This document shows, piece by piece, positions 5,730 through 61,113 of a DNA stretch of 64,000 nt (positions are counted from its first letter, which is position 1; each line of letters opens with the position of its first letter). The position numbers and the translations under genes were made by a program. The notes under the pieces were generated by a model. The model searched no databases, was not told where the DNA came from, and saw nothing but the letters and a program-made list of their open reading frames with translations. This DNA is from Pseudomonadota bacterium (GTDB taxonomy: Bacteria > Myxococcota_A > Polyangia > JAAYKL01): positions 254,343 to 318,342 of the forward strand of contig JALNZK010000002.1 of the NCBI GenBank assembly GCA_023229365.1, read 5' to 3'.

Positions 5730-6035
5730 ATGAAGAAAAACAAATCGCCAGATCATTGCCCCATCTGTGGGCAATATATGGAAGTAATCTGTTCTGGGTT
5801 TCAGCGGCACCCTTTTGTGGATGGTCGATGTTATGAAAACATTTGCCACATATGTTTTTCTGCTCCTTGCACCTGTCGTTTTGACGAAGGTGTGATGTGG
5901 AAACATTATGATTATGAGGATCAAGAACTGCATACCGCTGAGGAAATGATGCGGTTTGGGTTCACAAAAGCCGAAGTAGCCATTTCCTTAAAAGCAGTAA
6001 AATTGGCTATAAAAAATGGTAAGCACCCTAAATAG
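5730..6035 (+). CDS. Cys-rich small zinc-binding protein (hypothetical)
   Basis: CPICGQ...C...C...C...CTC cysteine pattern. Starts directly after the RNR stop. Confidence 0.4.
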   Translation: MKKNKSPDHCPICGQYMEVICSGFQRHPFVDGRCYENICHICFSAPCTCRFDEGVMWKHYDYEDQELHTAEEMMRFGFTKAEVAISLKAVKLAIKNGKHPK

Positions 6036-6038
6036 GGT

Positions 6039-7031
6039 ATGGATTTTAAGGGCTTTTTACTGAGCGAAATGATGGTTCATCGCCTTGGGGGAGAGCCATA
6101 TAGAAATTTTATTGCTTTTCGAGGGCATCTATGGCTATTTGATGATGAGCCAACACAAAAAGAAGCCAAAGCCATTAACCGCATTATTCTCAAAGAACAT
6201 CCTCAACACAAAGAATTAAAAGAAAAGCACAGGAAATTCGGCAAGTATTCATTTGATATTCAGGATTGGGTAAGAGAAAATATCCAAGATGCTTTTGTGG
6301 GAAGTTGGGATGCTAAAACAAAAATTATTTGGACTGGCGAAGATTCGATCAGTCCAGTGACTTCTCCATTAGTCAAAAAGGTTGTAGCTGCACTGAAAGC
6401 CAAATCTGTACAATTTGAAACCAATCAATCGTTCTCAAAAGAACAAGATGTGCCATCTTATCAAAGACAGGACAACACAAGCTATTGGGATCGCACTGAA
6501 ATTTATCGTCGCAAAGATATCTTAGGACAAATTCCAGAAACTGCATTTCATGGCACTTCTACCAAATATTTGCCTGATATTCTGAAATGGGGGCTAATGC
6601 CTGGACAAGCTGAGTCTAATTATGGGGACATTATGCATGAGGATAAGATATTTTTGGCATTCAAGTTCTCAGAAGCAGAATCACATGCTACGCATACAGG
6701 TGGTCGCACTAAAAACTATCCGGTTGTAATTCAAGTCAAAATACCCGATAGAGCCCGATTGTTGCCTGATTATGATGCTGATAAATCAACATCCACACCC
6801 ACCTATCCAGATTTTGTTGGCGGCAAACCGAATACATATTCTTCGGTTAGTCCAATGAAAGCTAGTAAACATCAAGGAGTTGTCGGATACAAAGGTCGTA
6901 TCCCAGCCAATTTCATCGAAGCTGTATATCTAAGAATGGGGAATAATTGGAAAAAAGTCAAATTAGATACTCTTAGAAAGAGGGTTGCAGAAGACCCTTG
7001 GGAATGGCAATATAAATACGGATTTGAATAG
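6039..7031 (+). CDS. Candidate ADP-ribosyltransferase-fold protein (Tpt1/KptA-like H-H-h / H-Y-E clade) with capsid-targeting-like N-terminal leader
   Basis: FHGTSTKYLPDILKWGLMPG resembles E. coli KptA LYHGTASRFLDEIKKQGL. IFLAFKFSEAE...PVVIQVKI resembles KptA VHLSADEATA...PVILTVKA. N-terminus MDFKGFLLSE matches the CTS-like leader with an L-x-E site. Confidence 0.5.
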   Translation: MDFKGFLLSEMMVHRLGGEPYRNFIAFRGHLWLFDDEPTQKEAKAINRIILKEHPQHKELKEKHRKFGKYSFDIQDWVRENIQDAFVGSWDAKTKIIWTGEDSISPVTSPLVKKVVAALKAKSVQFETNQSFSKEQDVPSYQRQDNTSYWDRTEIYRRKDILGQIPETAFHGTSTKYLPDILKWGLMPGQAESNYGDIMHEDKIFLAFKFSEAESHATHTGGRTKNYPVVIQVKIPDRARLLPDYDADKSTSTPTYPDFVGGKPNTYSSVSPMKASKHQGVVGYKGRIPANFIEAVYLRMGNNWKKVKLDTLRKRVAEDPWEWQYKYGFE

Positions 7032-7039
7032 GACAATTT

Positions 7040-7525
7040 ATGGAATTTAAATATTTTATTTTAAATGAAGGCAGGGCTTATCTGGGCATACGTTTGGGGG
7101 ACATTCTCAATGCAACTCAGGATTTAGAGCAAAATGCCAAAAGTATGGGCTCTCGTCAACTTGTCAGTAATGCTGAGGGCATTGTAAATCAAATTCGCAG
7201 AGTGTTACACACCCATTGGGATAAGCAGGAAGAAGAGTCCCTCAAAAAGTTGCAAAAGGCAGCAGTAGCTTTAGCCAGAGCTATCGAAGAAAAAGATGAT
7301 CTCTTAAACACGATTACATCGGTTAAGGGAGAGCTTGAGGAATTAGTGGGTGATTTAGGGCAGCCAATTGGGGAACTAGGCAAGCCAGAAGGCGGCAAAG
7401 AAGCCAAAGAACAAGAAGAAACGCCACAGCCTCAGCCTCAGCAAACTCAACAGCCAGGACCGCCACCAGCAGGACCACCGCAGCCTCAACAGCCGTCACC
7501 CCAAATGCCTGGGCAACCTCAATAA
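7040..7525 (+). CDS. Hypothetical CTS-leader protein with coiled coil and P/Q-rich low-complexity tail (candidate internal head protein)
   Basis: N-terminus MEFKYFILNE (leader motif plus L-x-E). C-terminal PQPQPQQTQQPGPPPAGPPQPQQPSPQ. Confidence 0.5.
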   Translation: MEFKYFILNEGRAYLGIRLGDILNATQDLEQNAKSMGSRQLVSNAEGIVNQIRRVLHTHWDKQEEESLKKLQKAAVALARAIEEKDDLLNTITSVKGELEELVGDLGQPIGELGKPEGGKEAKEQEETPQPQPQQTQQPGPPPAGPPQPQQPSPQMPGQPQ

Positions 7526-28626: not shown

Positions 28627-29082
28627 ATGAATTTTAAAGAATTTATTACTGAGTCTACGACATCCAGGTATAGTGTCGAGGTAAATTACCGCACCAGAAA
28701 ACAAGAGGTTTTAGAAGCGGCGGGCAAAATTACCTTGGGCTATGTTAGTGCTGCTCTCAAACAAAATGGATATCATGTTAAACAATTGTTTGACGAAACA
28801 CCTATTCGCATTGTTGTTTCAACTCGCAATTTTGAAGAAGGCGAATGGGTTGGCTTCCTGATATTTTATTCTAAAGATGGCGGAAAATATGTGATTGCTA
28901 ATGGATTTTATAACAGAGGACAAAAAAGCGTATCATTACAAACTTGGAAGGATGCCAAAGGTGATTCCCCCGCTGAACTAGCCGCCGAGATGAGAACGGT
29001 TATGTTTGAATTAAAAGAACGCAAAGATCGACATTTGCCCAGCTTGAAGCCCATTCCTTTAAAAAGAGGACCAAAGAAATGA
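28627..29082 (+). CDS. CTS-leader protein (candidate internal head protein), 151 aa
   Basis: N-terminus MNFKEFITE (I-x-E site). Confidence 0.5.
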   Translation: MNFKEFITESTTSRYSVEVNYRTRKQEVLEAAGKITLGYVSAALKQNGYHVKQLFDETPIRIVVSTRNFEEGEWVGFLIFYSKDGGKYVIANGFYNRGQKSVSLQTWKDAKGDSPAELAAEMRTVMFELKERKDRHLPSLKPIPLKRGPKK

Positions 29083-29387
29083 AAACATATAAGGAATTTG
29101 CGGAACAAGTTGGTGATTTTAAAGATCAGGAAACTTTATTAAAGACCTTGGGCTTAAAATCTGTGCCTCCAAAAAAACAATTAAAAGTAGTTGGTAATAC
29201 AGAGCCTGAATATGATCCCCAAGCAGAAAAGGCACAAGGTGATTTATATGCCTCTTTGGTAAAAGAATTACAAGATTTATTGGACACTTTGGACTGGGAT
29301 GAAAGCAATGTGGTGGGAATTCAACAAGCTCTTGCTAAAATCAATCACCAGGGACAGGCTTATCTCAAGCATATATCAAGCAAATGA
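29079..29387 (+). CDS. CTS-leader protein (candidate internal head protein), 102 aa
   Basis: N-terminus MKTYKEFAEQ closely resembles the T4 IPIII CTS MKTYQEFIAE as recalled. Confidence 0.5.
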   Translation: MKTYKEFAEQVGDFKDQETLLKTLGLKSVPPKKQLKVVGNTEPEYDPQAEKAQGDLYASLVKELQDLLDTLDWDESNVVGIQQALAKINHQGQAYLKHISSK

Positions 29388-38094: not shown

Positions 38095-39267
38095 CTAAGC
38101 ATCCAAAGGTGTTCCATAATGTGTCCATCGGGCCACTCGCAAAGCGTCTTTGTCACCAACAGCTTTTCCGCCGTCTTCGCTCAGTTTCACTACGGGAATG
38201 CCGTTTAGAGCCCACATTTTGATAACCATATTCAATGGTTTTAAATCGCCATCAAAATCATTGGTGAAATGAGTGCCAATGCCAAAGCTGCATCGGATGC
38301 CCAATTCATCACAATAATGCTTGATTTCTACTGCTTTATCAGCATTTAAATTATCTGAAAAAATCAGCGTCTTGGTGGCTGGATCGATTTTCAGACCTTG
38401 GTAATGTGCAACCAATTGATCGGTAAACTTGAATGGACAACCACTATCATGCCGTGCTCCATCCCACAGGCGTGCATGAAATGGTCCGAAATCTTCCAAA
38501 AAAGACTTCAGCCCATAGGTGTCGGTAAGCACAATCCCAAGCTGAGCATTGTATACTTTCACCCAAGCATCCATCGCTGCCAGATTAGCATGACGCAAGC
38601 TGCCCAAAACACTGTGGGCTTGAACCCACTCATGAGCCTGAGTGCCTATTGGCTTTGTTTTGTATTTCATCGCAAAATAGGGATTACTGGTGCCGACAAA
38701 AAAGCCTTTGGTGTTTTTGCAAAATTCTTCAACCACCAAACCCTGGGCATCAGCACTTCGTCTTCGACGGGTGCCAAAATCAGCAAAATGACACCGCTCA
38801 GATTCCAAAATAGCCAATTTATTTTGGGCTCTTTCTCGTTGTCCATTGTAATCCCAATTTTTATTATGGAAATACAATTCACTTATCAGTGCCATCAAAG
38901 GCACTTCCCACATCACAGTACGGTGCCAAGAACCTTTAATATGAATGTGGAGTTGTCCTGATTCTTGCCAAATTTCTACTTCTTGGGGGTTGTAGCGATA
39001 ATTTCGCAAATATTCAATGTAGGCTGGCTTGACAAAAGGACAGGACTGTTGCAACCAAGTGGCTTCCTGACCAGACAAAGACAGTGCGGGCATATATTGA
39101 ATGGATCGTCGTAATGTTTCAGCAAATGCTTCATCAAAAGTATCGCTGGGACGACGATTGAAAAATCTATATTCAGCCCGTGCAGAAGGATACAATTCCA
39201 GTATCGCCTGCTGCATTGTCAGTTTATAGAGATCGGTGTCTAAGATAGATGGCAAATTCATTATCAT
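38095..39267 (-). CDS. pncB: Nicotinate/nicotinamide phosphoribosyltransferase (PncB-like)
   Basis: N-terminal ILDTDLYKLTM (PncB LDTDxYKxTM). GTSN and FGIGTHF motifs. About 390 aa. Confidence 0.7.
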   Translation of the reverse strand: MIMNLPSILDTDLYKLTMQQAILELYPSARAEYRFFNRRPSDTFDEAFAETLRRSIQYMPALSLSGQEATWLQQSCPFVKPAYIEYLRNYRYNPQEVEIWQESGQLHIHIKGSWHRTVMWEVPLMALISELYFHNKNWDYNGQRERAQNKLAILESERCHFADFGTRRRRSADAQGLVVEEFCKNTKGFFVGTSNPYFAMKYKTKPIGTQAHEWVQAHSVLGSLRHANLAAMDAWVKVYNAQLGIVLTDTYGLKSFLEDFGPFHARLWDGARHDSGCPFKFTDQLVAHYQGLKIDPATKTLIFSDNLNADKAVEIKHYCDELGIRCSFGIGTHFTNDFDGDLKPLNMVIKMWALNGIPVVKLSEDGGKAVGDKDALRVARWTHYGTPLDA

Positions 39268-49759: not shown

Positions 49760-50362
49760 GTGCTTACATTCAAAGAGTGGAAAACATTAAATGAAAATTT
49801 TGGCGGGGCGATTCCCATTGGCCTCGGTCAGCCCAGTGCAGTCGTGGGTGTGGTCGGTGCTCAATTTGGAGATGAAGCTCAATTAGAAGAAGCCAAAAAG
49901 GGCAAAAAGAAAATGTTCGGAGACGAAGAGCCCGAGAAAGATGACGACGAAGACAAAGAAGTAAAAATAGTCGTTAAAGGCAAAAAGGATGATGACAAGG
50001 ATGACGACGAAGACAAGGGTGAGGAAAAAGGCGAAGACAAGGGCGAGGAAAAAGTCGATAAAGAACCCGATGGCGACAAAGACGACAAGCCAGCATTTCT
50101 AATGTCAAAAAAGAAATGCAAAGGTTGTAATTGCAAATCCGACAAGAAAATGGCCAAAGAAAACAAGGAGTGGTATGGTTCTGTAATCAACCAACTTAAC
50201 TCTGATCCCAACGCAAAATTCTGGGACGGTTTTTCAACAATTGAAGAAGATGCTTTACTGGCCCCAGCAGATCAAAATGCCGGTTTAGTAGATGGTGAAC
50301 CTGCCCCTGGCAGCGTAGGATCGGCACCAGTTCAACGAGTTGGTGGTTGGTTCGGCGGCTAA
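49760..50362 (+). CDS. Highly acidic K/D/E-rich CTS-leader protein (candidate internal head protein)
   Basis: GTG start. N-terminus (M)LTFKEWKTLNE (L-x-E). DDDEDKEVK...KDDDKDDDEDKGEEKGEDKGEEK low complexity. Confidence 0.5.
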   Translation: MLTFKEWKTLNENFGGAIPIGLGQPSAVVGVVGAQFGDEAQLEEAKKGKKKMFGDEEPEKDDDEDKEVKIVVKGKKDDDKDDDEDKGEEKGEDKGEEKVDKEPDGDKDDKPAFLMSKKKCKGCNCKSDKKMAKENKEWYGSVINQLNSDPNAKFWDGFSTIEEDALLAPADQNAGLVDGEPAPGSVGSAPVQRVGGWFGG

Positions 50363-50584: not shown

Positions 50585-51004
50585 ATGACATACCGAATTC
50601 AAACCAATCATAATTTCCACGGCGAAAATATATCAGAAAGGGACTGGAATACAATAAGTTCCAGTCGGGCTGGACATCAAGAATTTGATGACGATGAGTT
50701 AGCAATTGCCATCAAAACGTTCGAAAGAAACGCAAATATGGCAAGAATGATTTGGCCAATGCGATTAATTGATTCAAATGGCCAAATTCTAAGATATTAC
50801 AATCCAGAATTAGACGAATGGCTTCCAGGCCCTCGGGGAAGACTGGAAGAAAAGGCTTACTATATTTGGGAAAAGATTGGTGCCACTGATGTTGAATGTT
50901 GGTTCAAAGCCAAGGAAGAGACAGAAAAAGAAACCAGTAATTTAAGCCAATTTTTCGGACATATGCCAAAATTCTCAGAACGTGGTTTGCTGGAACCAAA
51001 CTAA
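50585..51004 (+). CDS. Hypothetical protein
   Basis: ORF. Confidence 0.35.
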   Translation: MTYRIQTNHNFHGENISERDWNTISSSRAGHQEFDDDELAIAIKTFERNANMARMIWPMRLIDSNGQILRYYNPELDEWLPGPRGRLEEKAYYIWEKIGATDVECWFKAKEETEKETSNLSQFFGHMPKFSERGLLEPN

Positions 51005-51819
51005 GTATAAACAGCCGTTTGTCGCACTAATGGCGACATTGATCTTTTTCTTAGCCTTCGGCTTTTTTCTCTATCCAGTGCTTCTGCTTTGACCATCTGT
51101 GGGCTTGATGGCATTGGTTCTGGTTCTGGCTCGTCGTCATCATCGCCCCTTGGTTGATAAAAACGATCTATTGATTCTTTTACGAATTTAGCTATTTCAT
51201 AGGGCGTGTTGAGACGAGTATCCGACCAACCTTGTCCTTGCTCATCTGGACCGTCTGTGAATTCGCCTATACGCTCCATGTCATGACGAGGATCACCGGG
51301 GCTACTTACCGCAATGGGAAAGCCTTTGATCTCAGCAGATGTTTTATAATCCATTTCAGGTGCAGGCATCATACCAGGACGCCAACCTTCGAGGAATCCC
51401 ATAAAGCGAACTAAAGGATGTCCTTTTTTGGGGTCAAATTCAGTTACTTTTTCAAATGATATACTACGCTCATATTCTAGCTCTTTTTGATGTCTTTCCC
51501 AACTATTTGATGGACCCCAATATTTCGGACCACCAAAATATCCTTCAGGTGCCTCTGGTGGTTTTCCTGCCCATTCTGTCTTTTTAAAGCATTGAACGAA
51601 GAATTTGAGGTAATACTTATCCCCCTCCATACGAACATTACGCCCGGTCATTTCGCAAACGAGCCGCCATTGATAACGCAATGCAGGGACTTCGCTACGA
51701 CCGGACGATCCCATTTTCCAAGCCCAGTCACCACCCACTAGGTGTTGGACAGACAGCAAGACGTAGTTTGGAATTTCCACCACTTTTGCTTCATTAATCA
51801 TCCATTCCTTGAAATTCAT
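51001..51819 (-). CDS. CTS-leader protein (candidate internal head protein), 272 aa
   Basis: N-terminus MNFKEWMINE (I-x-E). Acidic DDDDEPEPEP tail. Confidence 0.45.
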   Translation of the reverse strand: MNFKEWMINEAKVVEIPNYVLLSVQHLVGGDWAWKMGSSGRSEVPALRYQWRLVCEMTGRNVRMEGDKYYLKFFVQCFKKTEWAGKPPEAPEGYFGGPKYWGPSNSWERHQKELEYERSISFEKVTEFDPKKGHPLVRFMGFLEGWRPGMMPAPEMDYKTSAEIKGFPIAVSSPGDPRHDMERIGEFTDGPDEQGQGWSDTRLNTPYEIAKFVKESIDRFYQPRGDDDDEPEPEPMPSSPQMVKAEALDREKSRRLRKRSMSPLVRQTAVYT

Positions 51820-52856
51820 TTTACCCGCTCCCCAGATTTCAATACCTTGGCTACCAACGCAGAGGGAACTTTGTATTCAAAGGTGGATTTCATTATATTG
51901 TATTCATACCATCTCTGAACACTTTCCTCAGATGTCATATTCTGCCTGCGTGTGACCATTATTGATTTGTTGCTTTTTTCTGCCTGTTCAATTGCTTTCC
52001 TGAGGGCTGGGCCATGCACTTTTATCACTTCTTCCATGCCTTTGAGACTGCCTACCATTACTTCAAATTTAGATGGATAAGCCCATTGCCAAGGATCATC
52101 TTTTCTCGGCTTACTGACTTTCACCATATAAGCAGTGGCTTTTGTGCCCTGAATTTGGACACGATCCCCTGGACGTAAGATAATGCCATTTTCCGTGGTG
52201 TAGCCAGGGGACATGCTTGAATCCAGGGTATAAACACATTGTTCTGGACGATAGACACAGATTTGATTGCCATCCAACAATGAGCCACGCATGCTTTTGC
52301 CCTTAAAATGCACAGCATCAAATTGTGATTTTAAAGCATTGGTCAAGTCCTCTGTTTCTTGCATCCATCTTTTTTCTAATTCTTCTTGATTCTTAAAGTC
52401 TCCTTTGGGCGGCATGTCATATCCATATTGCCTCCACCATTTCATCATGGTATTATTAGAACCAAAGTTTATTTCTTCAATACGAGGCGGGGTATGATCG
52501 GCACCACCGATGTAATAAGCCTTTAAGCCTTTGCCAGTGCCTACATTGAAGTTCTTGGCTATACCAAGCGATTTAGTGAAGTAAGTGCCCCAGCCAAGAA
52601 AATGAATCGGAGGCAATGTATCTCTAGCACCAAAATCCCCAGGATTGAATCCGTGTCTAACGTCCCCAGAGCGGGGAGGGGATTTGAAGAATTGAAAACC
52701 CTGATGTTGAATCAGTTGTCTTTTTTCATCTGTAGTGCCATGATAGACTGGCCCAAAGAACTGCAATTTCTCTGCATCTTCTGGGCTTACGTACTTCGGC
52801 AACATAAAAGGAAAATATTTTTGAATATCTTCCAACAACCACAGTCTAAATTCCAT
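51816..52856 (-). CDS. Candidate H-Y-E-clade ADP-ribosyltransferase with CTS-like leader
   Basis: N-terminus MEFRLWLLED (L-x-E). VYHGTTDEKRQLIQHQGF resembles diphtheria toxin YHGTKPGYVDSIQKGI and PARP WHGSRTTNFAGILSQGL. GTYFTKSLGIA resembles PARP GIYFADMVSKS. Confidence 0.4.
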   Translation of the reverse strand: MEFRLWLLEDIQKYFPFMLPKYVSPEDAEKLQFFGPVYHGTTDEKRQLIQHQGFQFFKSPPRSGDVRHGFNPGDFGARDTLPPIHFLGWGTYFTKSLGIAKNFNVGTGKGLKAYYIGGADHTPPRIEEINFGSNNTMMKWWRQYGYDMPPKGDFKNQEELEKRWMQETEDLTNALKSQFDAVHFKGKSMRGSLLDGNQICVYRPEQCVYTLDSSMSPGYTTENGIILRPGDRVQIQGTKATAYMVKVSKPRKDDPWQWAYPSKFEVMVGSLKGMEEVIKVHGPALRKAIEQAEKSNKSIMVTRRQNMTSEESVQRWYEYNIMKSTFEYKVPSALVAKVLKSGERVK

Positions 52857-52864
52857 AAAGATAT

Positions 52865-53623
52865 TTAGGGACTAGTCGGTTGTTTTAAACAAGCCTCTAT
52901 TAAATATTTGCCAATTTGAAATTGTCGCCTAGTCACGCAATGCCCAGCATCTTTTTCAATATCTGTGTAGATTTTGTACCCTTTGTTTTTCAGGGCAGTA
53001 AACATAGGGATGAAACGTTCTTGCCACTCAAAAATAAGATCATCCCTACTGTGTGCCAGAAAGAATGGGGTGTCAGGACAATTACATTGCGGCACAGCTT
53101 CTGGGTCCAAAATAGCCCCGTTGTGAGAAATCACACCAGCAAAGGGAGTTGGGCTCATTACAGCAGTCATAATAGCCATAACTGCCCCTGCTGAGTGCCC
53201 TACCAGCACAATTCTATTCCGTGGAATACCACGTTTGTTTTCAATGAGTTTCAACACTTCTTCTATCACAGCCATTGCTGGCATTACGCCTTTGACTGCC
53301 TCTTCTTGGTCGTTGATGCCATTGGGCATAGGATACCAAGAACGAATTGTGGGTGTTATTCCAACGATAAAAGATTTTACTCCTTGTCGTTTGTACGCAG
53401 AAGCTAATTCCTGCCCATGATTGCCACGCCCAGGCAAACAAAGCACACAAGAGTCATGATTCCACTTATTGTATTTAATCCAGCGTTTTTCCAAGGTGGG
53501 TGGATAAAATTCAGCACGGCTTTGCGGACGCCACAGATTGTGGAATCCCATGTCATTAGGCATGCTGTCAAATGGCTGCCCTCGTCCCAGCCATTGACTG
53601 GCATAATAGTGATATCTTGTCAT
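52865..53623 (-). CDS. Alpha/beta hydrolase (phospholipase/carboxylesterase-like)
   Basis: GHSAGA nucleophile elbow (GxSxG). Later Asp/His candidates. Confidence 0.5.
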   Translation of the reverse strand: MTRYHYYASQWLGRGQPFDSMPNDMGFHNLWRPQSRAEFYPPTLEKRWIKYNKWNHDSCVLCLPGRGNHGQELASAYKRQGVKSFIVGITPTIRSWYPMPNGINDQEEAVKGVMPAMAVIEEVLKLIENKRGIPRNRIVLVGHSAGAVMAIMTAVMSPTPFAGVISHNGAILDPEAVPQCNCPDTPFFLAHSRDDLIFEWQERFIPMFTALKNKGYKIYTDIEKDAGHCVTRRQFQIGKYLIEACLKQPTSP

Positions 53624-54586
53624 TTACAAATTCCATTCTCGGTAGAAGTCAAATTGCGTATCTTCTGTCTGAAGGCGATTAAATAATTGGCGGGGCATTT
53701 CTTGTTGAAGCAACTTGAGAAACTTTTTTGATTTAGTTTTGTTGGAGGTATTAATTGCTTCCTGCAACTGTTCTACATCATATCCATGACAATGATAACA
53801 ACTTGCTGGAGTAAAATCCTCTTCAGCCCATGCCTTTTCATCATTTAGTCGTTTTTCGTCTACTGTCCAATATTTTAGATGATTGCCATTTTTGACGAAA
53901 TCTATTGTAAACTCACAAATGTCATATATCAAGCCCACCAACTTGGGACTCGCCACCCAGAAATTGCCCAAGGATCGATATTCTACTCCGTGGTCTGGCT
54001 TTCTAAACCGACCAGCTTTGCCATATAATTTACGTCGAGCAACAGAAGATTTGTCCGTATCAAGGAAAACTGAAGGCAATCCCAAAAATAAATCTAACAT
54101 ACGCACCACAAAGTAGCAGGACATATCATCTTGCAAAAACTTATTACCCAAATGCACATGTCCACCCGCTGTTCTTAAACAATTGGAAAGAAACTCATTT
54201 TTGGGTGGCTTTACTACTTCAAGTCGATAAACACAAACTTCGGGATCACAACCTATTTTCTTCGCCTCAGGATGTTGTAGTTCAGATACTGGATAATTTT
54301 GAGAAGCTTTTACCATCAATTTATATGGCGATACCAATTTGGCATATTTTTTAAAGCAATCTCTAAAGTTTTTGATAACATCATTTTTATCACTGGCTGG
54401 AGAAACAGCACATTCAGCCATTACGTTGTCATAAAAATATTGATGTTTCCCAATTTCATGTCGTTTGTACTTATCCCCAGGAACAATACCAATGGCACTA
54501 AAAAATTTGCCATCTTTGCAAAGCATAAACTCAGGGTCACTTCCAAAAGAAAAATTCATATTTTCCTCTCCATTTTTGTTTGTCAT
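53624..54586 (-). CDS. Carboxylate-amine ligase (GCS2 / glutamine-synthetase-like amidoligase family)
   Basis: N-terminal FGSDPEF acidic motif and TAGGHVHLG (compare GCS2 GxHVHVG). Confidence 0.4.
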   Translation of the reverse strand: MTNKNGEENMNFSFGSDPEFMLCKDGKFFSAIGIVPGDKYKRHEIGKHQYFYDNVMAECAVSPASDKNDVIKNFRDCFKKYAKLVSPYKLMVKASQNYPVSELQHPEAKKIGCDPEVCVYRLEVVKPPKNEFLSNCLRTAGGHVHLGNKFLQDDMSCYFVVRMLDLFLGLPSVFLDTDKSSVARRKLYGKAGRFRKPDHGVEYRSLGNFWVASPKLVGLIYDICEFTIDFVKNGNHLKYWTVDEKRLNDEKAWAEEDFTPASCYHCHGYDVEQLQEAINTSNKTKSKKFLKLLQQEMPRQLFNRLQTEDTQFDFYREWNL

Positions 54587-55332
54587 TTATGCCAAATTGG
54601 CACAAGCGATCTTGTATCACCACTTGAGAAAGAACAAATACCCAAATTATCGTGCATGTCTTGTATTCTCAATCCTTTAGGATAATTTTTTTTGATATCT
54701 TCGGGAAATATTTTTCGGTCACCTTCTGCCAAAATACGCTTGATTCCTTTAAGACTATTGGTGAGTCGGTCACGATCCTCCGCTTGATAAGGGGTGACTG
54801 AACAATTGCAGATGCCATTAATCGTATCCCAGAAATCTTTGCCCAGCGTATGCGAAAAACCAACTCGAATGAGCATGGTGTAGAGCGAAATCATAGGCGG
54901 GCTTCTCATCCAACGTTTGCTGCCCTCTAATAACCAAACCCCACCAGCCGCATATTTTATGGGTGGCGAGGCACATTCTCGGACTTTTGTTTTTACAATT
55001 TTGAGTTGTGACTCTATTTGATGCAAAAAATCTAGGCAGGCAGGAATTTTTTTTCTAAGAATTTTGTCTTGAGAATTTGCTATGATAATTTTAGTTTTGG
55101 ACAAGCAGATTTCTTGTCCCTTTTGGGAAATAAACTGAAAGCCGTAGATTTTTTTCTTTGTTCTGTAAAGCTGATTGTAGATAGCATCCTGCAAATAGTC
55201 TTTACACAGCACAAAAGGGCATATTTGGCAGTAATTTTCGGAAACAAAAGAGAACTCTAGTCCCGACCAAATAGCCTGATTCAAAGAGGCTTTTTTTTGA
55301 TACCACACTATCCTTTTTTTGTAATTTCTCAC
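54583..55332 (-). CDS. Hypothetical protein
   Basis: ORF. Confidence 0.35.
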   Translation of the reverse strand: MRNYKKRIVWYQKKASLNQAIWSGLEFSFVSENYCQICPFVLCKDYLQDAIYNQLYRTKKKIYGFQFISQKGQEICLSKTKIIIANSQDKILRKKIPACLDFLHQIESQLKIVKTKVRECASPPIKYAAGGVWLLEGSKRWMRSPPMISLYTMLIRVGFSHTLGKDFWDTINGICNCSVTPYQAEDRDRLTNSLKGIKRILAEGDRKIFPEDIKKNYPKGLRIQDMHDNLGICSFSSGDTRSLVPIWHK

Positions 55333-55428
55333 AGTTTGGCTCCAAAATTGTAGGATAACAACATCTGAATAATAAACAAAATAGGCACATCTGTCAACAC
55401 GGAATTCCGAATTGGCGGCGTAAATATC

Positions 55429-55728
55429 TTGATGGGTACTTTTAGAGAATTCCTGGGTCGTCCTGTTTTATCAAATGTTGAGATTGCCAACATATATTTT
55501 GGCAATCCCAAGACATCTGTGCAAGAGATACTAGACCTAACCGGGCTTTCCAAAAGAGAGTTTTACGCAATTGTGCATAACTTTGGTGTACCAAACCGTT
55601 TACGCACCAATCACCACAACGTAATCTCCCTGGCCGATCAGGGCATGCCCCTGGATCAAATTGCCCGAGCTACTAAGTATAGCACACAAAACGTTAAATA
55701 TATTCTAAGAAAGAATTTACATGATTAG
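55429..55728 (+). CDS. Putative HTH DNA-binding regulator
   Basis: Two HTH-like segments, ILDLTGLSKREFYAIV and MPLDQIARATKYSTQNVKYIL. Confidence 0.4.
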   Translation: MMGTFREFLGRPVLSNVEIANIYFGNPKTSVQEILDLTGLSKREFYAIVHNFGVPNRLRTNHHNVISLADQGMPLDQIARATKYSTQNVKYILRKNLHD

Positions 55729-56524
55729 TGGAAACGACATTTCTTTTGCTTTGTCGGGCGGCACCATGAACACCAACCCAACTCAATCTTTGGGGGGGCA
55801 TCCGTCTGCCTATCCAATAACATCTGGCATGAATAATTTGTTTCCTAACTACACCTTAGCCCAGACAAATAGCGGCTACATAGACTATCGATGTATTTAT
55901 GTGTTTAATAATCATGCTCTCGATTCCATGTATGGAGTAACAGCCGGAATTGTCGCAGTTAGCGGTGGTGCCGTAGAATATTTTGGCACCCCGATAACCA
56001 CGGAGCAGCAGCAAATAGTAATCTCGGGAAACGTTACCGGAGGCTCATTCACGCTTTCTTATGATGCTTACACCACATCGGCAATTCCTTGGAGTCCTTT
56101 TACCAACACTTGGGCCGCCAGCATACAAAGTGCATTAAACAATTTGCCAGTTTTATCTGGGGTTGTGGTTTCCTATTCTGCGAGCCCTGGATTGACACGA
56201 TTTATACTTCTTTTCCAAGGATATGGCGATCACAAACAACATCCGTTGTTAGTGGCAACTAATAATTTAACGCCTGCTGGCATAACAACGACTGTATCTA
56301 AGGTTACAAACGGTGGGCCAATTAATAATATTGCTTCAACAATATCCCATGAAACCATAACACCTGCTGGCATTACTTTTGTGGGCACGGGCACTATTTT
56401 GGACATAGGGACATTAGGCCCAGGTGAAGGATTTCCTGTATGGATCAAAAGACATCTATTAGCGGGGACAGCGGCAAAATATAATGATGGTTTAAATTTA
56501 CAAGTTACTTGTAGTCCAATTTAG
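55721..56524 (+). CDS. Hypothetical Gly/Thr/Ser-rich beta-type protein (possible fibre/decoration)
   Basis: Composition only. Confidence 0.3.
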   Translation: MISGNDISFALSGGTMNTNPTQSLGGHPSAYPITSGMNNLFPNYTLAQTNSGYIDYRCIYVFNNHALDSMYGVTAGIVAVSGGAVEYFGTPITTEQQQIVISGNVTGGSFTLSYDAYTTSAIPWSPFTNTWAASIQSALNNLPVLSGVVVSYSASPGLTRFILLFQGYGDHKQHPLLVATNNLTPAGITTTVSKVTNGGPINNIASTISHETITPAGITFVGTGTILDIGTLGPGEGFPVWIKRHLLAGTAAKYNDGLNLQVTCSPI

Positions 56525-57486
56525 TGCAAATGTTCCAAAAGTTGCTGAGGATCAATTATTCCAAACCCTTGGTAAAAACTTTTATCTTTTAATTGATCTT
56601 TGATGGGGGTGGTATGATTCTTAAAAGCCTTATAATAATCTCTTACTGTTGTTAGCGGAAAGTTTAATTTTTTTTGCTTATGAGCCGATAACAATAGTGC
56701 TGCAATACCGGCTACCCACGGAGTGGCCATCGAAGTGCCAGAAAGCATAGCGTACCAGTTTTTGGGGACCGTAGAAAGAATTTTTTCGCCTGGGGCCATA
56801 AAATCTAAATTCTTACCAGTACAACTAAATTGTGATCTGTCAAGGTTTTCATCAATTGATCCAATAGCAATAGTTTCAGGATAAGCGGCAGGATAAAACA
56901 CATCCGATGTAAATCCAGAATTTCCAGCAGCCACAAATACTGGAATATTTCTTTTGTGTGCATATTGAATAGCTTTGCGAACTTGCTGAATAGGGTTAGG
57001 AGAGCCTAAAGACAAACAAATAATATCTGCACCATTATCAACAGCCCACCGAATACCATCGGCTACTATTCCATAACTACCAGAACCATATTTGTCCAAC
57101 ACCTTTATGGGCATTACTTTTGCTTTTTCCGCCACACCTATTCCACATTGTCCGCAAATAATACCCGCCACATGGGTGCCGTGACCAAGAACGCTATCAT
57201 CCCAAGGTTCTTTACCAGGACAAATGAAATTTTTTCCTGGCACTAAATTGTTTATAAGACATGGATGATCTAATTGACATCCACAATCCACGACAGCGAC
57301 CACAACTCCTTCGCCTGCACAGTGTTTCCATATTTCTGGTAAATTAAAAGCTGAAATTGACCATCCTGACTTTTCTTTTACATCAGCTAAAGTTAAAATT
57401 TCTTCCTTAATAATGGGAAATAATTTGAATTTATTTTCAAGCTTAGATTTTTTTTCCTCTTTTTTTACCTCTGGGTTTTCTGACAT
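56521..57486 (-). CDS. Subtilisin-like serine protease (peptidase S8)
   Basis: D motif VVVAVVDCG, H motif GHGTHVAGII, S motif LSGTSMATPWVAGIAALL. Confidence 0.7.
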   Translation of the reverse strand: MSENPEVKKEEKKSKLENKFKLFPIIKEEILTLADVKEKSGWSISAFNLPEIWKHCAGEGVVVAVVDCGCQLDHPCLINNLVPGKNFICPGKEPWDDSVLGHGTHVAGIICGQCGIGVAEKAKVMPIKVLDKYGSGSYGIVADGIRWAVDNGADIICLSLGSPNPIQQVRKAIQYAHKRNIPVFVAAGNSGFTSDVFYPAAYPETIAIGSIDENLDRSQFSCTGKNLDFMAPGEKILSTVPKNWYAMLSGTSMATPWVAGIAALLLSAHKQKKLNFPLTTVRDYYKAFKNHTTPIKDQLKDKSFYQGFGIIDPQQLLEHLH

Positions 57487-58027
57487 TTTTTACTGGCTCC
57501 TGTGGTGCTGTATTACTGCTCGATGAACTTATGCTGCTGGCAGAACTACTTGGGGCTGACCAAGAGCCATTTCTGTATTTTTCAACAACCCAGTCTATAG
57601 CACTTGCTATTACAATATAGATGATAAAGTTTTCAATTTGAGTTGAGAAAGGCTTTAAAGCAGTGGGTAAAGCATTAGCAACAACGAATTCATAAACTAC
57701 AACGCAAGCCGCTAATACAATGGCTTTTTTTTCTGGTCCGCTGGCTATTTCCTTTTCAACAGCTATAATCATTTCATCTAAAGCAGCTAAAATAAATTTT
57801 ACAACTTTGCGAAGGTCCACTTTTTTCCAAAATTGCCACCATTTTGGAGGCGGATTTTCTTCAACCCATTTAGCCTGTAAGCTTTTTATTATATTGTTGA
57901 TAGACTCCACTTGTGGCGGATTCTTTGCGACAGGATTTCCGGCTGCTATCATATATGCTCCTATTCTATTGTATTTACACTTTATATGACAAATTATAAT
58001 CCAATACCCACAACAGAAAATGACCAA
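57443..58027 (-). CDS. Hypothetical membrane-associated protein
   Basis: Hydrophobic segments. Ser-rich and basic C-terminus. Confidence 0.3.
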   Translation of the reverse strand: MVIFCCGYWIIICHIKCKYNRIGAYMIAAGNPVAKNPPQVESINNIIKSLQAKWVEENPPPKWWQFWKKVDLRKVVKFILAALDEMIIAVEKEIASGPEKKAIVLAACVVVYEFVVANALPTALKPFSTQIENFIIYIVIASAIDWVVEKYRNGSWSAPSSSASSISSSSSNTAPQEPVKNVRKPRGKKRGKKI

Positions 58028-58485
58028 TATAAATCACGCTCGCTATGCACCACATTTTTGAACCCCAAATCTTTTAGGAGTTTTACCGTAGCGGCGGGAA
58101 CAAAAGAATGCAAGTGTTTTCTGTTGTTTTGCGGAAGCCAGTATTCCATATCAGGATGTGGCAAATATAGAAATAATACACCGGAAGGTTGCAAAAATGT
58201 TATCCAATATTCTAATGCTTTTACGTAATTATCAACATGTTCAAGTGTGTGAGAACTAAAAATATAATCATATTTTCCATCCGGCAAATTGTAGGCATCG
58301 TAGCCATCATGATTTAGAATGTTGATAATTTTAGCACCTGGGAAATGACAATTAATCAGTCCCCCAATATCCAATCCATCCCCACTACAGAATTTTTCAG
58401 CAAATGGCAGAATAAAGTTCGCAGCATGTTCGCTGCGAATGTATTCTGGATAGGTTTCGCCTTTATAGTTCATTAAAATATTCAT
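57994..58485 (-). CDS. Class-I SAM-dependent methyltransferase
   Basis: GLDIGG (motif I). FSSHTLEHV. Confidence 0.5.
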   Translation of the reverse strand: MNILMNYKGETYPEYIRSEHAANFILPFAEKFCSGDGLDIGGLINCHFPGAKIINILNHDGYDAYNLPDGKYDYIFSSHTLEHVDNYVKALEYWITFLQPSGVLFLYLPHPDMEYWLPQNNRKHLHSFVPAATVKLLKDLGFKNVVHSERDLYWSFSVVGIGL

Positions 58486-59720
58486 ATGAAATTCCTGCTT
58501 ACCAAATAATCAAAAAAGCGTTTCATTATCTTTAGGTGACTGTCTTCATCTATGTCATGTCTATGAATGTTTGGATTTATATCTAGATGTCTGCCAATAT
58601 TCATGCAGGTGTTTGTTTTAATAAGCCTGATATTGTGCTCACTTTTATGTTCATACATGTCGCTGCCTGGAAATGGAATGAATCTGCCCACAACCACATT
58701 ATCAGGTTTTGTTTCTTCTATAAATCTAATGTTTGCATCAACAGTTTCTTCTGAATCGTAAGGCAATCCTATCATAAAGAATTGCCTTATTTTTATTGGA
58801 TATTTTTTCATAGCAAGCATTGCATTTTTTGCCTGCTCTACTGTAATGCCCTTGCTCATCTTTGCGAGGACAGAATTATCTGCTGCTTCAATACCAATCC
58901 CTATTTCACGGCAACCTGAATCATATAGCCAAGACATTGTTTCATCATCAATGGCGTCAATTCTGGTAGAGCATCTGTAATAAATGTCCAAATCCTTTAG
59001 CAATTCAGCAAGACTTTTTAAGTATTTTCTATTAATCGTAAATGTATCATCTTGAACTCTGAATTGATGAATTCCATAGACTTCTTTGATTTGTGTGATT
59101 TCTTTTTTAATTGATTCAAGTGATCTGAAGTTTATTTTTCTGTTATACAATTTAACGCTTGAGCAAAAAGCACAATTAAAAGGACAGCCCCTGCTAAACA
59201 TTATGGAAGTAGAGCCGCCATCTTTGAATGATGTGCCGGAACTAAAAATTGAATCTGTTTTTATATAACTTATTGGCAAAATTTCCCGCAACGGCAGCAA
59301 TGAGTTTATATCAACATTTTTAGATTGAGTATAGAATTTTTTTATTGAATTGTTTTCAAAATCCTTCACATAATCCAGAATGGTGTCTTCGGCTTGTCCA
59401 ACAAATACAGAATCAAAAACAGGATCAATAGTGTCTTTGGACAAGGTGGCTGCTGGGCCACCTATGATTATTTGCTTGTTGTGTTTTAATTTGATTTTTT
59501 TAGCAATCTCAACACAGCTTAAATAAGTCGGATGCACTGCTGAGAAGCAAAAAACATCGCTATCTTCTATGTTTTCAGCGTTATCTGCATTAGTGTCAAA
59601 AATCTTTGTCTCTATTCCTTGTGATTTCAAAGCCGCCGCAATATACAATATTCCCAGAGAAAACTGTGCTTTGTAATCGTAGAGCCACGACATGTCTGGA
59701 ATTACGAATGTAAATTTCAT
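58482..59720 (-). CDS. B12-binding-domain radical SAM enzyme
   Basis: N-terminal B12-binding-like region. CPFNCAFC (CxxxCxxC) radical SAM cluster motif. Confidence 0.6.
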   Translation of the reverse strand: MKFTFVIPDMSWLYDYKAQFSLGILYIAAALKSQGIETKIFDTNADNAENIEDSDVFCFSAVHPTYLSCVEIAKKIKLKHNKQIIIGGPAATLSKDTIDPVFDSVFVGQAEDTILDYVKDFENNSIKKFYTQSKNVDINSLLPLREILPISYIKTDSIFSSGTSFKDGGSTSIMFSRGCPFNCAFCSSVKLYNRKINFRSLESIKKEITQIKEVYGIHQFRVQDDTFTINRKYLKSLAELLKDLDIYYRCSTRIDAIDDETMSWLYDSGCREIGIGIEAADNSVLAKMSKGITVEQAKNAMLAMKKYPIKIRQFFMIGLPYDSEETVDANIRFIEETKPDNVVVGRFIPFPGSDMYEHKSEHNIRLIKTNTCMNIGRHLDINPNIHRHDIDEDSHLKIMKRFFDYLVSRNFI

Positions 59721-60412
59721 TATTTATCCATAAACAAAAATGCGTTACGAAGATTGCGTGCAACAAAATTCATATCAACTTGTTGCATGTTTTCATCCAA
59801 AATATAATTATAAATTTTTAAAGTATCCAACATTGGTTGTGTGTCTGTTCCGCAAAACCAATAATCATGAAAAGACACATACAGGATTGGTTTAATCTTA
59901 GATAAGTATGACGCAAAAGATGGCAATATTTTAACTTCCCCTCCTTCTATGTCAATTTTGATAAACCCACAATCAATGTCATTCTTTTTTACAAATTCTT
60001 CAATGGTAATGCCGGTTACATCGACAAGATCACCAGTTTGCACCATTATACTAGACATAGAATCACCAAAACATTCGTGTGTGCCAAGCTTTAATGTTTC
60101 ATTAGTATCAGATATGGCACAACAATTTGTTGTAATTGGAAAATTATTTAATGCAACATTTTCAAGTAATTTTTGATAAGCAACCGGATCGGGCTCGATT
60201 GCAAAACTTCGCTTTGCGATCTGTGCAGCATATAAAATTGTTGGACCAATCCATGCCCCAATATCAATGTAATCTTTGTTTGGATTCACATATCTATTTA
60301 ATATTTGATAAGTAATCGGCTCCCAGGTGTTGTTTTCTACTCTATCCCAAAATAAAGGATAGTGAGATGGGGATATAAAAAATTGACGATTAGCAACATT
60401 TATTTTTCTCAT
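59720..60412 (-). CDS. FkbM-family methyltransferase
   Basis: YIDIGAWIGPT...SFAIEPDP. Confidence 0.45.
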   Translation of the reverse strand: MRKINVANRQFFISPSHYPLFWDRVENNTWEPITYQILNRYVNPNKDYIDIGAWIGPTILYAAQIAKRSFAIEPDPVAYQKLLENVALNNFPITTNCCAISDTNETLKLGTHECFGDSMSSIMVQTGDLVDVTGITIEEFVKKNDIDCGFIKIDIEGGEVKILPSFASYLSKIKPILYVSFHDYWFCGTDTQPMLDTLKIYNYILDENMQQVDMNFVARNLRNAFLFMDK

Positions 60413-61113
60413 TTTTGAAAATCCTTTGCAACGTCGGCCCCTTTATGTCCTAAAGAGCTTTCGCCACCAATATGATCTATGACAGAGGGTTTTGTGACAA
60501 TTAATGAAATTTTTCTCTCTCTCATTCCAGCACTTAATTCCCAATCCCACTGATTGCTAGTTAAATAAGGTAAAATAAAAGGGCACAAATTTCTATTAAA
60601 AAACAAATTAATTCCACCTATACTATTTTTTACATAATATTTGTTAAATGTTTCCAATACAAAATGATGTTGATGAGCATTAAATCCAGAAATAATGCTT
60701 TCTGGAAATTCTTTTAACAATTGATTTAAAATAATGAGCCAATATGGTTTCACAATGGCATCAGAGTCTATATTGCTAATTATGTCAAATCCAGATTCAT
60801 AAAAATAGGTAAACCCAGTTTTTAATCCATAAAACATACCCTTGTTTTTAGGATTGTATGTTTTTATTGTCTTTACTCCTATGTTGCAAGATTTTATTAT
60901 TTGCTTAGTTTGTGCATTGCTATTGTCATCAATAATATAAATCTCCGATCCCGCAGGAAAAAAACTGTGCGACAACGAATCAATTGTTCTCTTTAAGTAA
61001 TCCGGGCGATTATATGTTGTAATTACTAATCCTATTTTTTGCAAAATCACCTCATGTATGCGTAATGTGTGGTTTTTCAACAAAATACTCATGATTTGCA
61101 CAATCTTTTTCAT
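60409..61113 (-). CDS. Glycosyltransferase family 2
   Basis: IGLVITTYNRPDYLKRTIDSL...IYIIDDNSN. Confidence 0.55.
   Translation of the reverse strand: MKKIVQIMSILLKNHTLRIHEVILQKIGLVITTYNRPDYLKRTIDSLSHSFFPAGSEIYIIDDNSNAQTKQIIKSCNIGVKTIKTYNPKNKGMFYGLKTGFTYFYESGFDIISNIDSDAIVKPYWLIILNQLLKEFPESIISGFNAHQHHFVLETFNKYYVKNSIGGINLFFNRNLCPFILPYLTSNQWDWELSAGMRERKISLIVTKPSVIDHIGGESSLGHKGADVAKDFQK

Follow-up and report, generated by a model that had tools for sequence, protein, structure and literature searches.

The 64-kb stretch of DNA analyzed here (the window) encodes homologs of the T4_baseplate, gp15 stabilizer, and gp18 sheath proteins of phage tails, and it therefore derives from a T4-like myovirus. 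A complete ATG-to-stop open reading frame (ORF) of 330 amino acids (aa) plus the stop codon exactly fills positions 6039-7031 of the plus strand, as the initial reading of the sequence had it, and its start codon is backed by homologs with the same conserved N terminus. The gene is located in a tight co-directional block with genes for SbcCD, ribonucleotide reductase, an amidotransferase, and a PDDEXK nuclease, and not among head genes. The next gene (7040..7525, plus strand) encodes a helical protein with a P/Q-rich tail, to which no family could be assigned. Both genes are syntenic in a relative whose protein is 61% identical (P0002), and the arrangement of the block is conserved there. Synteny is limited to this close relative, and the neighborhoods of distant homologs differ. 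We rejected the next gene as a conserved partner, given that its product and KVP40.0291 are both 161 aa long and yet unrelated. A gene for a Pnkp-like protein (PNK3P plus AAA_33) lies ~15 kb upstream on the same contig. Scans of the sequence for sigma-70 promoters and terminators gave counts that match the shuffled expectation.

The encoded protein belongs to PHROG 11974 (E = 1.7e-29), which is annotated as "unknown function." NCBIfam and PADLOC returned no match to it, and no Pfam family scored above threshold. We found 16 close homologs, and a profile search retrieved 1717 cluster representatives at E <= 1e-3 (348 at E <= 1e-30); both domains described below are covered in nearly all of the best 150 of these representatives. 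An identical protein (M0R80_02880) is carried by a contig of 340 kb from a metagenome-assembled genome that was deposited under the label "Proteobacteria bacterium." Homologs from cultured viruses occur only in KVP40-like vibriophages of the Straboviridae (KVP40.0290 and nt-1 ORF157) and in Salicola phage SCTP-2, and all are annotated as hypothetical. Some members form part of giant proteins of 1100-2100 aa, which also contain NUDIX, ART-PolyVal, and GH108 lysozyme/peptidoglycan-binding domains. These giant homologs read as continuous multidomain proteins, and we therefore rejected the explanation that they are gene-fusion artifacts. Polyvalent proteins of this type have been predicted to be packed into virions and injected, as stated in the text of Iyer et al. 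(PMC9503650).

The protein can be divided into three parts and a linker, all on the plus strand: a short leader (aa 1-10; 6039..6068), a family-specific N-terminal alpha/beta domain (aa 11-132; 6069..6434) with conserved R/K28, E/D80, D84, S109, K/R113, and K114, a variable linker (aa 133-150; 6435..6488), and a predicted NAD+-binding domain of the ADP-ribosyltransferase (ART) fold (aa ~151-330; 6489..7028). An AlphaFold model of the full-length protein, built from an alignment of the 16 homologs, has a pLDDT of 82 and a pTM of 0.81. The linker is gappy in the alignment and is modeled with low confidence (pLDDT < 50 at aa 133-139 and 144-149). For the N-terminal ~130 aa, neither a solved fold nor a recognizable fold relative was matched.

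The C-terminal domain shows the split beta-sheet of the ART fold. With the model as query, Foldseek returned pertussis toxin S1, Tpt1, cholera toxin, and DarT, each at a probability of ~1. BLASTP aligned aa 166-248 with residues 100-168 of Escherichia coli KptA (26/84 identities; pairwise E = 2e-6), and hhalign comparisons of the target family with Tpt1/KptA gave probabilities of 95.4% and 97% in two runs, the latter with 113 family members set against 24 genuine Tpt1 sequences (E = 1e-10). We have very little doubt that the C-terminal half adopts the ART fold, and the NAD+ lobe of Tpt1/KptA is established as the nearest known relative of this domain.

The two lobes have in common both the fold and a motif. 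This motif had been reported as HGT-x6-I-xx-GL; it is present at aa 171-186 (6549..6596), and each of its two gaps is one residue longer (HGT-x7-I-x3-GL). Residues 170 to 186 read FHGTSTKYLPDILKWGL, with the H-G-T codons CAT GGC ACT at 6549-6557, and the corresponding segment of E. coli KptA, HGTASRFLDEIKKQGL (kptA gene from NC_000913), has identical spacing, so that the motif aligns with KptA H105-G-T...I115...G119-L. It spans ART strand 1 and helix 1 and is predicted to be an NAD+-binding element; its equivalents in CthTpt1 (His101, Thr103, Ile111, and Gly115) lie in the NAD+ lobe, which contacts ADP-ribose and adenine (PMC6333775). The strand-helix-strand segment after the motif is collinear between the two proteins. 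Collinearity with KptA, which the sequence-only reading had described for the motif and segments downstream of it, is real over the ~84 residues from aa 166 to aa 248 and does not reach further; no tool aligned the last ~80 aa with KptA.

The Pfam Tpt1 profile (PF01885), against which that reading had proposed a comparison, matched aa 159-191 with E = 0.023 and 15.2 bits, against a cut-off of 26, and it matched 17 of the 113 family members weakly (best E = 4.7e-4). Searches of PDB sequences with the single sequence and with profiles gave marginal Tpt1 matches (E 0.01-1) confined to ~30-40 aa around the HGT motif, including several Tpt1 chains at E ~0.01 with the profile of 16 homologs. Such matches are suggestive and would be insufficient on their own.

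Conservation was counted over 113 family members, each 22-63% identical to the target. Within the HGT motif, G172 is present in all 113, and H171, T173, and G185 are each present in 112. Strand positions from the model and from hhalign place H171 in ART strand 1 and F205 (6651..6653) in strand 2, which conforms to the ART pattern, where strand 1 carries His or Arg and strand 2 carries an aromatic residue or S-T-S; position 205 is F in 110 members and Y in 3. After strand 4 comes an acidic pair, D244-Y-D246 (6768..6776), both aspartates of which are present in 113/113. Strand 5 is represented by the conserved segment G280-VVG-Y284-K-G286 (6876..6896; strand at aa 281-285 in the model), in which Y284 is invariant, G280 is present in 111/113, and G286 in 112/113. 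H171-G-T, F205, D244-x-D246, and Y284 are therefore the invariant or nearly invariant residues of this family. The distinct set D244, D246, and Y284 is evidently under strong purifying selection, to judge from this alignment, and the aspartates are candidate family-specific catalytic or substrate-binding residues; that they act in catalysis is a guess.

Several other ART groups could be compared with the target. The sequence-only reading had placed the domain in a clade other than that of T4 Alt, and this placement held: in the R-S-E clade (Alt/VIP2 and Mod), strand 1 carries Arg and strand 2 carries S-T-S, and there is an E-x-E motif, whereas the target has His171 in strand 1 and I-F-L-A in strand 2 and therefore falls outside that clade. 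No Alt/Mod-type family was among the Pfam matches of the target. The Pfam PARP profile (PF00644) matched below threshold (E = 0.0076; 16.2 bits versus a cut-off of 26.7), with weak matches in 24/113 members. Relative to the H-Y-E triad of PARPs, the target has Phe (F205) in place of Tyr, and its strand 5 (G-V-V-G-Y-K-G) has no acid at the position of the catalytic Glu (Glu, Asp, or Gln in the H-Y-[EDQ] and R-S-E clades); the invariant D244 and D246 lie after strand 4. We therefore rejected membership in the PARP catalytic domain family, given the subthreshold score and the incomplete triad. ART-PolyVal domains (PF18760; Iyer et al.) are predicted virion-delivered ARTs that occur in giant proteins alongside the domain of the target family. 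The target itself has no PF18760 match, and it is a stand-alone protein with a leader, not part of a polyprotein.

The leader, MDFKGFLLSE, resembles the N terminus shared by T4 internal proteins IPII and IPIII (MKTYQEFIAE in the T4 record). The first 10 residues of IPIII constitute a capsid targeting sequence (CTS), in which targeting involves residues 4 and 7, and processing involves residues 8 and 10 (PMC9026906). The similarity proposed at the outset was borne out in length, in the spacing of the aromatic residues (F3/F6, three apart like T4 Y4/F7), and in the end of the leader, L8-S9-E10. This tripeptide is a candidate site for the prohead protease, which is predicted to cut between 6068 and 6069. 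L/I-x-E is the motif of the T4 prohead protease, and the properties of the CTS and the logic of the motif are documented (PMC9026906, PMC5694885). In the family, [LIVMFA]-x-E (usually L/I-x-E) directly precedes the first conserved residue in 101/113 members, the P3 residue is L or I in 98/113, and the P1 residue is E in 102/113. Leaders of 9-10 aa are the most common; one apparently leaderless member (P0008) proved to be a start-codon miscall. In both models, confidence is low in the leader (pLDDT ~50 at aa 1-10 versus ~89 at aa 11-20), which is what a detachable tag would show. Some of the conservation of L-x-E-M could be due to the first beta strand, which begins there, and not to cleavage.

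T4 Alt likewise has a short N-terminal propeptide ending in [I/L]-x-E and is cut at ITE-6 (PMC5694885); both Alt and the target are ART-fold proteins of T4-type phages. The 10-aa leader of the target is nearer to the CTS of IPII/IPIII than to the Alt propeptide. As with IPI, IPII, and IPIII in T4, leaders of ~10 aa in which two aromatic residues stand three positions apart and the last residues read L/I-x-E are found on several unrelated proteins of the target phage. The leaders are similar and not identical, and the cargoes differ: the T4 internal proteins are small and basic, whereas the target without its leader would be a 320-aa two-domain putative enzyme.

Eight of the 80 nonoverlapping ORFs in the window carry the leader pattern. 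The gene next to the target begins with MEFKYFILNE. Three consecutive ORFs in 28627..30229 (plus strand) begin with MNFKEFITES (28627-29082), MKTYKEFAEQ (29079-29387), in which six of the first seven residues are identical to the T4 CTS, and MKFLEWAEQ (29384-30229), the last of which encodes a NUDIX hydrolase. A further ORF at 49760..50362 (plus strand), with no family assigned, begins with MLTFKEWKTLNE. Two consecutive ORFs in 51001..52856 on the minus strand begin with MNFKEWMINE (51001-51819) and MEFRLWLLED (51816-52856). The protein from 51816-52856 contains YHGT at aa 37-40 and has a weak match to ART-PolyVal (PF18760; E = 0.013). Paralogy between this second HGT protein and the target was rejected, since hhalign gave a probability of 9% and the two are not detectably of the same family. 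When residues 2-16 of each protein were shuffled, 0.43 tagged ORFs were expected and none of 2000 shuffles reached 8, a statistic based on one loose pattern fitted after the leaders had been seen. As a control, the same pattern picked only IPII and IPIII among 22 ORFs in a 10-kb region of T4. More leader-tagged ORFs lie just outside the window.

On the basis of these features, we tentatively favor the interpretation that the protein is packaged in the phage head and injected as an NAD+-dependent transferase analogous to T4 Alt from another ART clade, although we put its chances somewhat below even. The parts of this interpretation differ in strength: from the sequences, an active NAD+-using enzyme seems probable, while packaging by means of the leader might be true or false with about equal chance. 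The course of events that we infer, covering head packaging, cleavage, injection, NAD+ use, catalysis, and the nature of the target molecule, would be as follows. The leader would act like the T4 CTS and bind the scaffolding core of the assembling prohead, and a gp21-type prohead protease would remove it after L8-S9-E10. The mature protein would then enter the host with the injected DNA. The N-terminal domain (~120 aa, with conserved basic and acidic residues) probably recognizes the substrate, and the ART domain would bind NAD+ through H171-G-T, I181, G185, and F205 and transfer ADP-ribose to a host macromolecule after injection. For T4 Alt, both the packaging and the target are known; the likeness of the present protein to Alt lies in the proposed delivery with the DNA. 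Counting for a packaged ART are the T4-like tail genes, the homologs in Straboviridae, the recurrence of the leader, and the fusions into giant proteins. Counting against it are the location in a DNA-metabolism block, the lack of genes for a prohead protease, scaffold, or capsid protein in the window and in ~10 kb of flank on each side, the lack of late-promoter enrichment, and the missing strand-5 acid.

A possible, though doubtful, alternative is that the protein is a cytoplasmic, nonpackaged ART-fold enzyme that is made early or in mid-infection, with a timing like that of T4 ModA and ModB, and, within the infected cell, modifies a target belonging to the host or the phage; the leader would then serve translation initiation, regulated turnover, or some other localization. 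This possibility draws on the gene neighborhood and the expression signals. The gene shares a strand with DNA replication and repair genes in a block that is conserved in P0002, and the KVP40 and nt-1 homologs are located near topoisomerase, phoH, and asiA and not near head genes. The window has no excess of the late-promoter motifs of T4 and T4-like phages (TATAAATA and CTAAATA). Gene position is weak evidence, however, because alt and the internal-protein genes of T4 are likewise found away from the head gene cluster; according to the T4 record, ipII and ipIII adjoin denV and e. Against a cytoplasmic role stand the agreement of the leader with the T4 CTS (its length, the spacing of its aromatic residues, and its L/I-x-E end), its being far more ordered than N-terminal composition alone explains, as the shuffling indicates, and the embedding of the family domain in giant multidomain proteins of the polyvalent type.

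It is distinctly unlikely, in our judgment, that the protein is a noncatalytic member of the ART fold, whether a sponge for NAD+, ADP-ribose, or a derived signal or an internal head or structural protein. Such a role would account for the absence of Glu, Asp, or Gln at the canonical strand-5 position and of the Tpt1 tetrad described below, and pseudo-PARP domains (TASOR, RCD1, and SRO1) are among the structural neighbors of the model. On the other hand, H-G-T, F205, D244, D246, and Y284 stay fixed even between members that have diverged widely, as expected of an active site, and a D-x-D pair together with His and Tyr is rarely fixed by binding alone. The fusions with NUDIX and other enzymatic effectors also suggest enzymatic deployment.

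That the protein is a genuine Tpt1/KptA RNA 2'-phosphotransferase acting in phage RNA repair with a polynucleotide kinase-phosphatase and an RNA ligase is very improbable, even though Tpt1/KptA is its best structural and profile match, the Pnkp-like gene lies upstream, and KptA homologs have been reported in some jumbo phages (PMC7824862 and the text of PMC9503650). [quoted passage not shown] In the profile alignment, the tetrad positions fall on E80, N81, S123/V124, and H200 of the target, and position 80 is acidic (E or D) in 102/113 members, while position 200 is H in 78/113 and F in 21/113. The cage (Cth R121, R139, and R140) is not conserved either; the corresponding residues of the target are H200 and position 223, which varies (K in 42, N in 18, and R in 15 of 113). 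The N-terminal 132 aa alone matched the Tpt1 profile at a probability of 1.1% in hhalign and are unrelated to its winged-helix RNA lobe. The full-length hhalign alignment apparently extended into this lobe, yet the two runs differ in register there. Within the NAD+ lobe itself, Tpt1 (the H-H-h clade of PF01885) has a second His (KptA H129) where the target has F205, and the target has a ~30-aa insertion before strand 5 and, in the BLASTP alignment, its invariant D-x-D where KptA has F164 and Q166. The target is also ~150 aa longer than KptA, with its cleavable-looking leader. Accordingly, the identity as a Tpt1/KptA enzyme is rejected, given the loss of the tetrad, the cage, and the RNA lobe and the subthreshold PF01885 score. 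The NAD+ lobe is the sole part common to the target and Tpt1, and the N-terminal domain is family specific.

A more specific form of the packaged-transferase interpretation may also be proposed. The protein would found a new family of ARTs, defined by the H-F signature, the invariant D-x-D, and its own substrate-recognition domain. Giant T4-like phages would load it into the head by the CTS and inject it, and as infection begins it would ADP-ribosylate a nonprotein target, for example the ends or bases of RNA or DNA, or an immune signal derived from NAD. This version is unlikely as it stands; if true, Alt would have a counterpart in the Tpt1 clade, and the protein would be the first injected ART directed at nucleic acids.

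To our knowledge, T4 Alt, of the R-S-E clade, is the only head-packaged ART known from experiment. Comparative work has predicted such proteins more widely, as described in the text of PMC9503650. In the literature covered, which included the text of Iyer et al. 2022, neither this family nor its joining of a leader, a novel domain, and a Tpt1-like NAD+ lobe was described, and we found no virion proteome for KVP40-like phages or for any phage with a homolog. The significance of the family is that a large and unannotated group of proteins (the 1717 cluster representatives) joins a CTS-like leader to an ART domain on the Tpt1 side, one from which the active site for RNA repair is gone and which has acquired invariant residues of its own. 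Because KVP40.0290 and nt-1 ORF157 belong to cultured phages, packaging, cleavage, and NAD+-dependent activity are directly testable.

The occurrence of the same leader on at least eight unrelated proteins of the window, including the NUDIX hydrolase and the second HGT protein, suggests that giant T4-like phages use a CTS to load a sizable and diverse set of enzymes into the capsid. If this is true, injected effectors could be cataloged from sequence alone by means of a simple N-terminal pattern. In KVP40, two leader-tagged ORFs adjoin gp24 and gp55.

The target, the 330-aa HGT-containing protein with a Tpt1/KptA-like domain, is accompanied in the window by several other proteins that carry a short N-terminal leader resembling the T4 capsid targeting sequence (CTS). 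A second HGT-containing example is a 346-aa protein (positions 51816 to 52856, minus strand) that starts with MEFRLWLLED and has YHGT at residues 37 to 40. It matches the ART-PolyVal family (PF18760) weakly (E = 0.013), and no kinship to the target family was detectable (hhalign, 9%). This protein may be a second packaged ART. Directly 3' of the target lies a gene for a leader-tagged protein of 161 aa (7040 to 7525, plus strand). This protein is predicted to be helical, has a long tail rich in P and Q, and resembles a scaffold or internal protein; the synteny of the two genes is kept in the relative P0002 (locus L012). Further downstream, a plus-strand ORF of 102 aa (29079 to 29387) begins with a T4-CTS-like leader, MKTYKEFAEQ, in which six of the first seven residues are identical to those of the IPII/IPIII CTS of T4 (MKTYQEFIAE). 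No family was assigned to this ORF, and its product is a candidate small internal protein. It is followed on the same strand by a 281-aa NUDIX protein (29384 to 30229; PF00293, E = 2.5e-17) with the leader MKFLEWAEQ, in which the NUDIX domain is C-terminal and the N-terminal part is weakly 5'-nucleotidase/HAD-like. NUDIX is also fused to the target-family domain in the giant multidomain homologues P0035, P0038, and P0060.

CTAAATA, a late-promoter variant in some T4-like phages, occurs 4 to 5 nt upstream of the ATG in both HGT-containing leader-tagged genes (6025 to 6038 and 52862 to 52868), and TATAAATA is found at 7011 to 7018, 21 nt upstream of the ORF starting at 7040. Neither motif showed overall enrichment. 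The site at 6025 to 6038 also forms a small hairpin, ACCC-TAAATA-GGGT, which spans the stop codon of the upstream gene.

The database start of P0008 (locus L005, 7965 to 8942) is an internal Met; the gene call is 13 codons short, because an upstream in-frame ATG restores the target-family leader, MRSFQGLSQFLNEM. In the polyvalent-type giants P0035 and P0060, a repeated amphipathic segment (...F-x-KIA-x-L-H/L-K-x-A...) precedes several domains, including the target-family copy. It is similar to the leaders at the N terminus of members with a single domain, such as MNWFQKIA. The repeats may be internal polyprotein processing sites. The same leader type is present on two adjacent KVP40 proteins annotated as hypothetical, KVP40.0065 (MLGNFDSFLSE) and KVP40.0066 (MKQFCNFLAE), encoded beside gp24 and gp55 (locus L010, 37733 to 39834); by eye, the latter has a SAM-methyltransferase-like glycine motif, LDYGAGKYG.

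The window also encodes a full-length nicotinate phosphoribosyltransferase, PncB (38095 to 39267, minus strand; NCBIfam NF003704, 469 bits versus a cutoff of 379), and the phage therefore has NAD+ salvage beside its putative NAD+-consuming enzymes. A functional NAD+ salvage pathway is reported for KVP40 in a title cited in PMC9503650. On the same contig, roughly 10 kb before the window begins, a polynucleotide kinase-phosphatase-like gene (PNK3P plus AAA_33) occurs with a tRNA-synthetase-class-I fragment (L008, 1 to 398), and thus the phage has RNA-repair-type functions.

The remaining minus-strand genes include a cluster (52865 to 61113) for an esterase/alpha-beta hydrolase, a phiEco32-like COOH-NH2 ligase, a subtilisin-like peptidase S8, a B12-binding radical SAM enzyme, two methyltransferases, and a family-2 glycosyltransferase, which may constitute a modification or biosynthetic module. 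A PP2C-type phosphatase (36043 to 36897; PF13672, E = 1.4e-12) and a nearby 571-aa protein with faint kinase-domain-like matches (lanthionine synthetase kinase region), located within 33788 to 36897, may form a kinase/phosphatase pair. An 817-aa protein (30774 to 33227) combines a major vault protein shoulder domain (PF11978, E = 3.9e-24) with a vault repeat (PF17795), which seemed unusual content for a phage.
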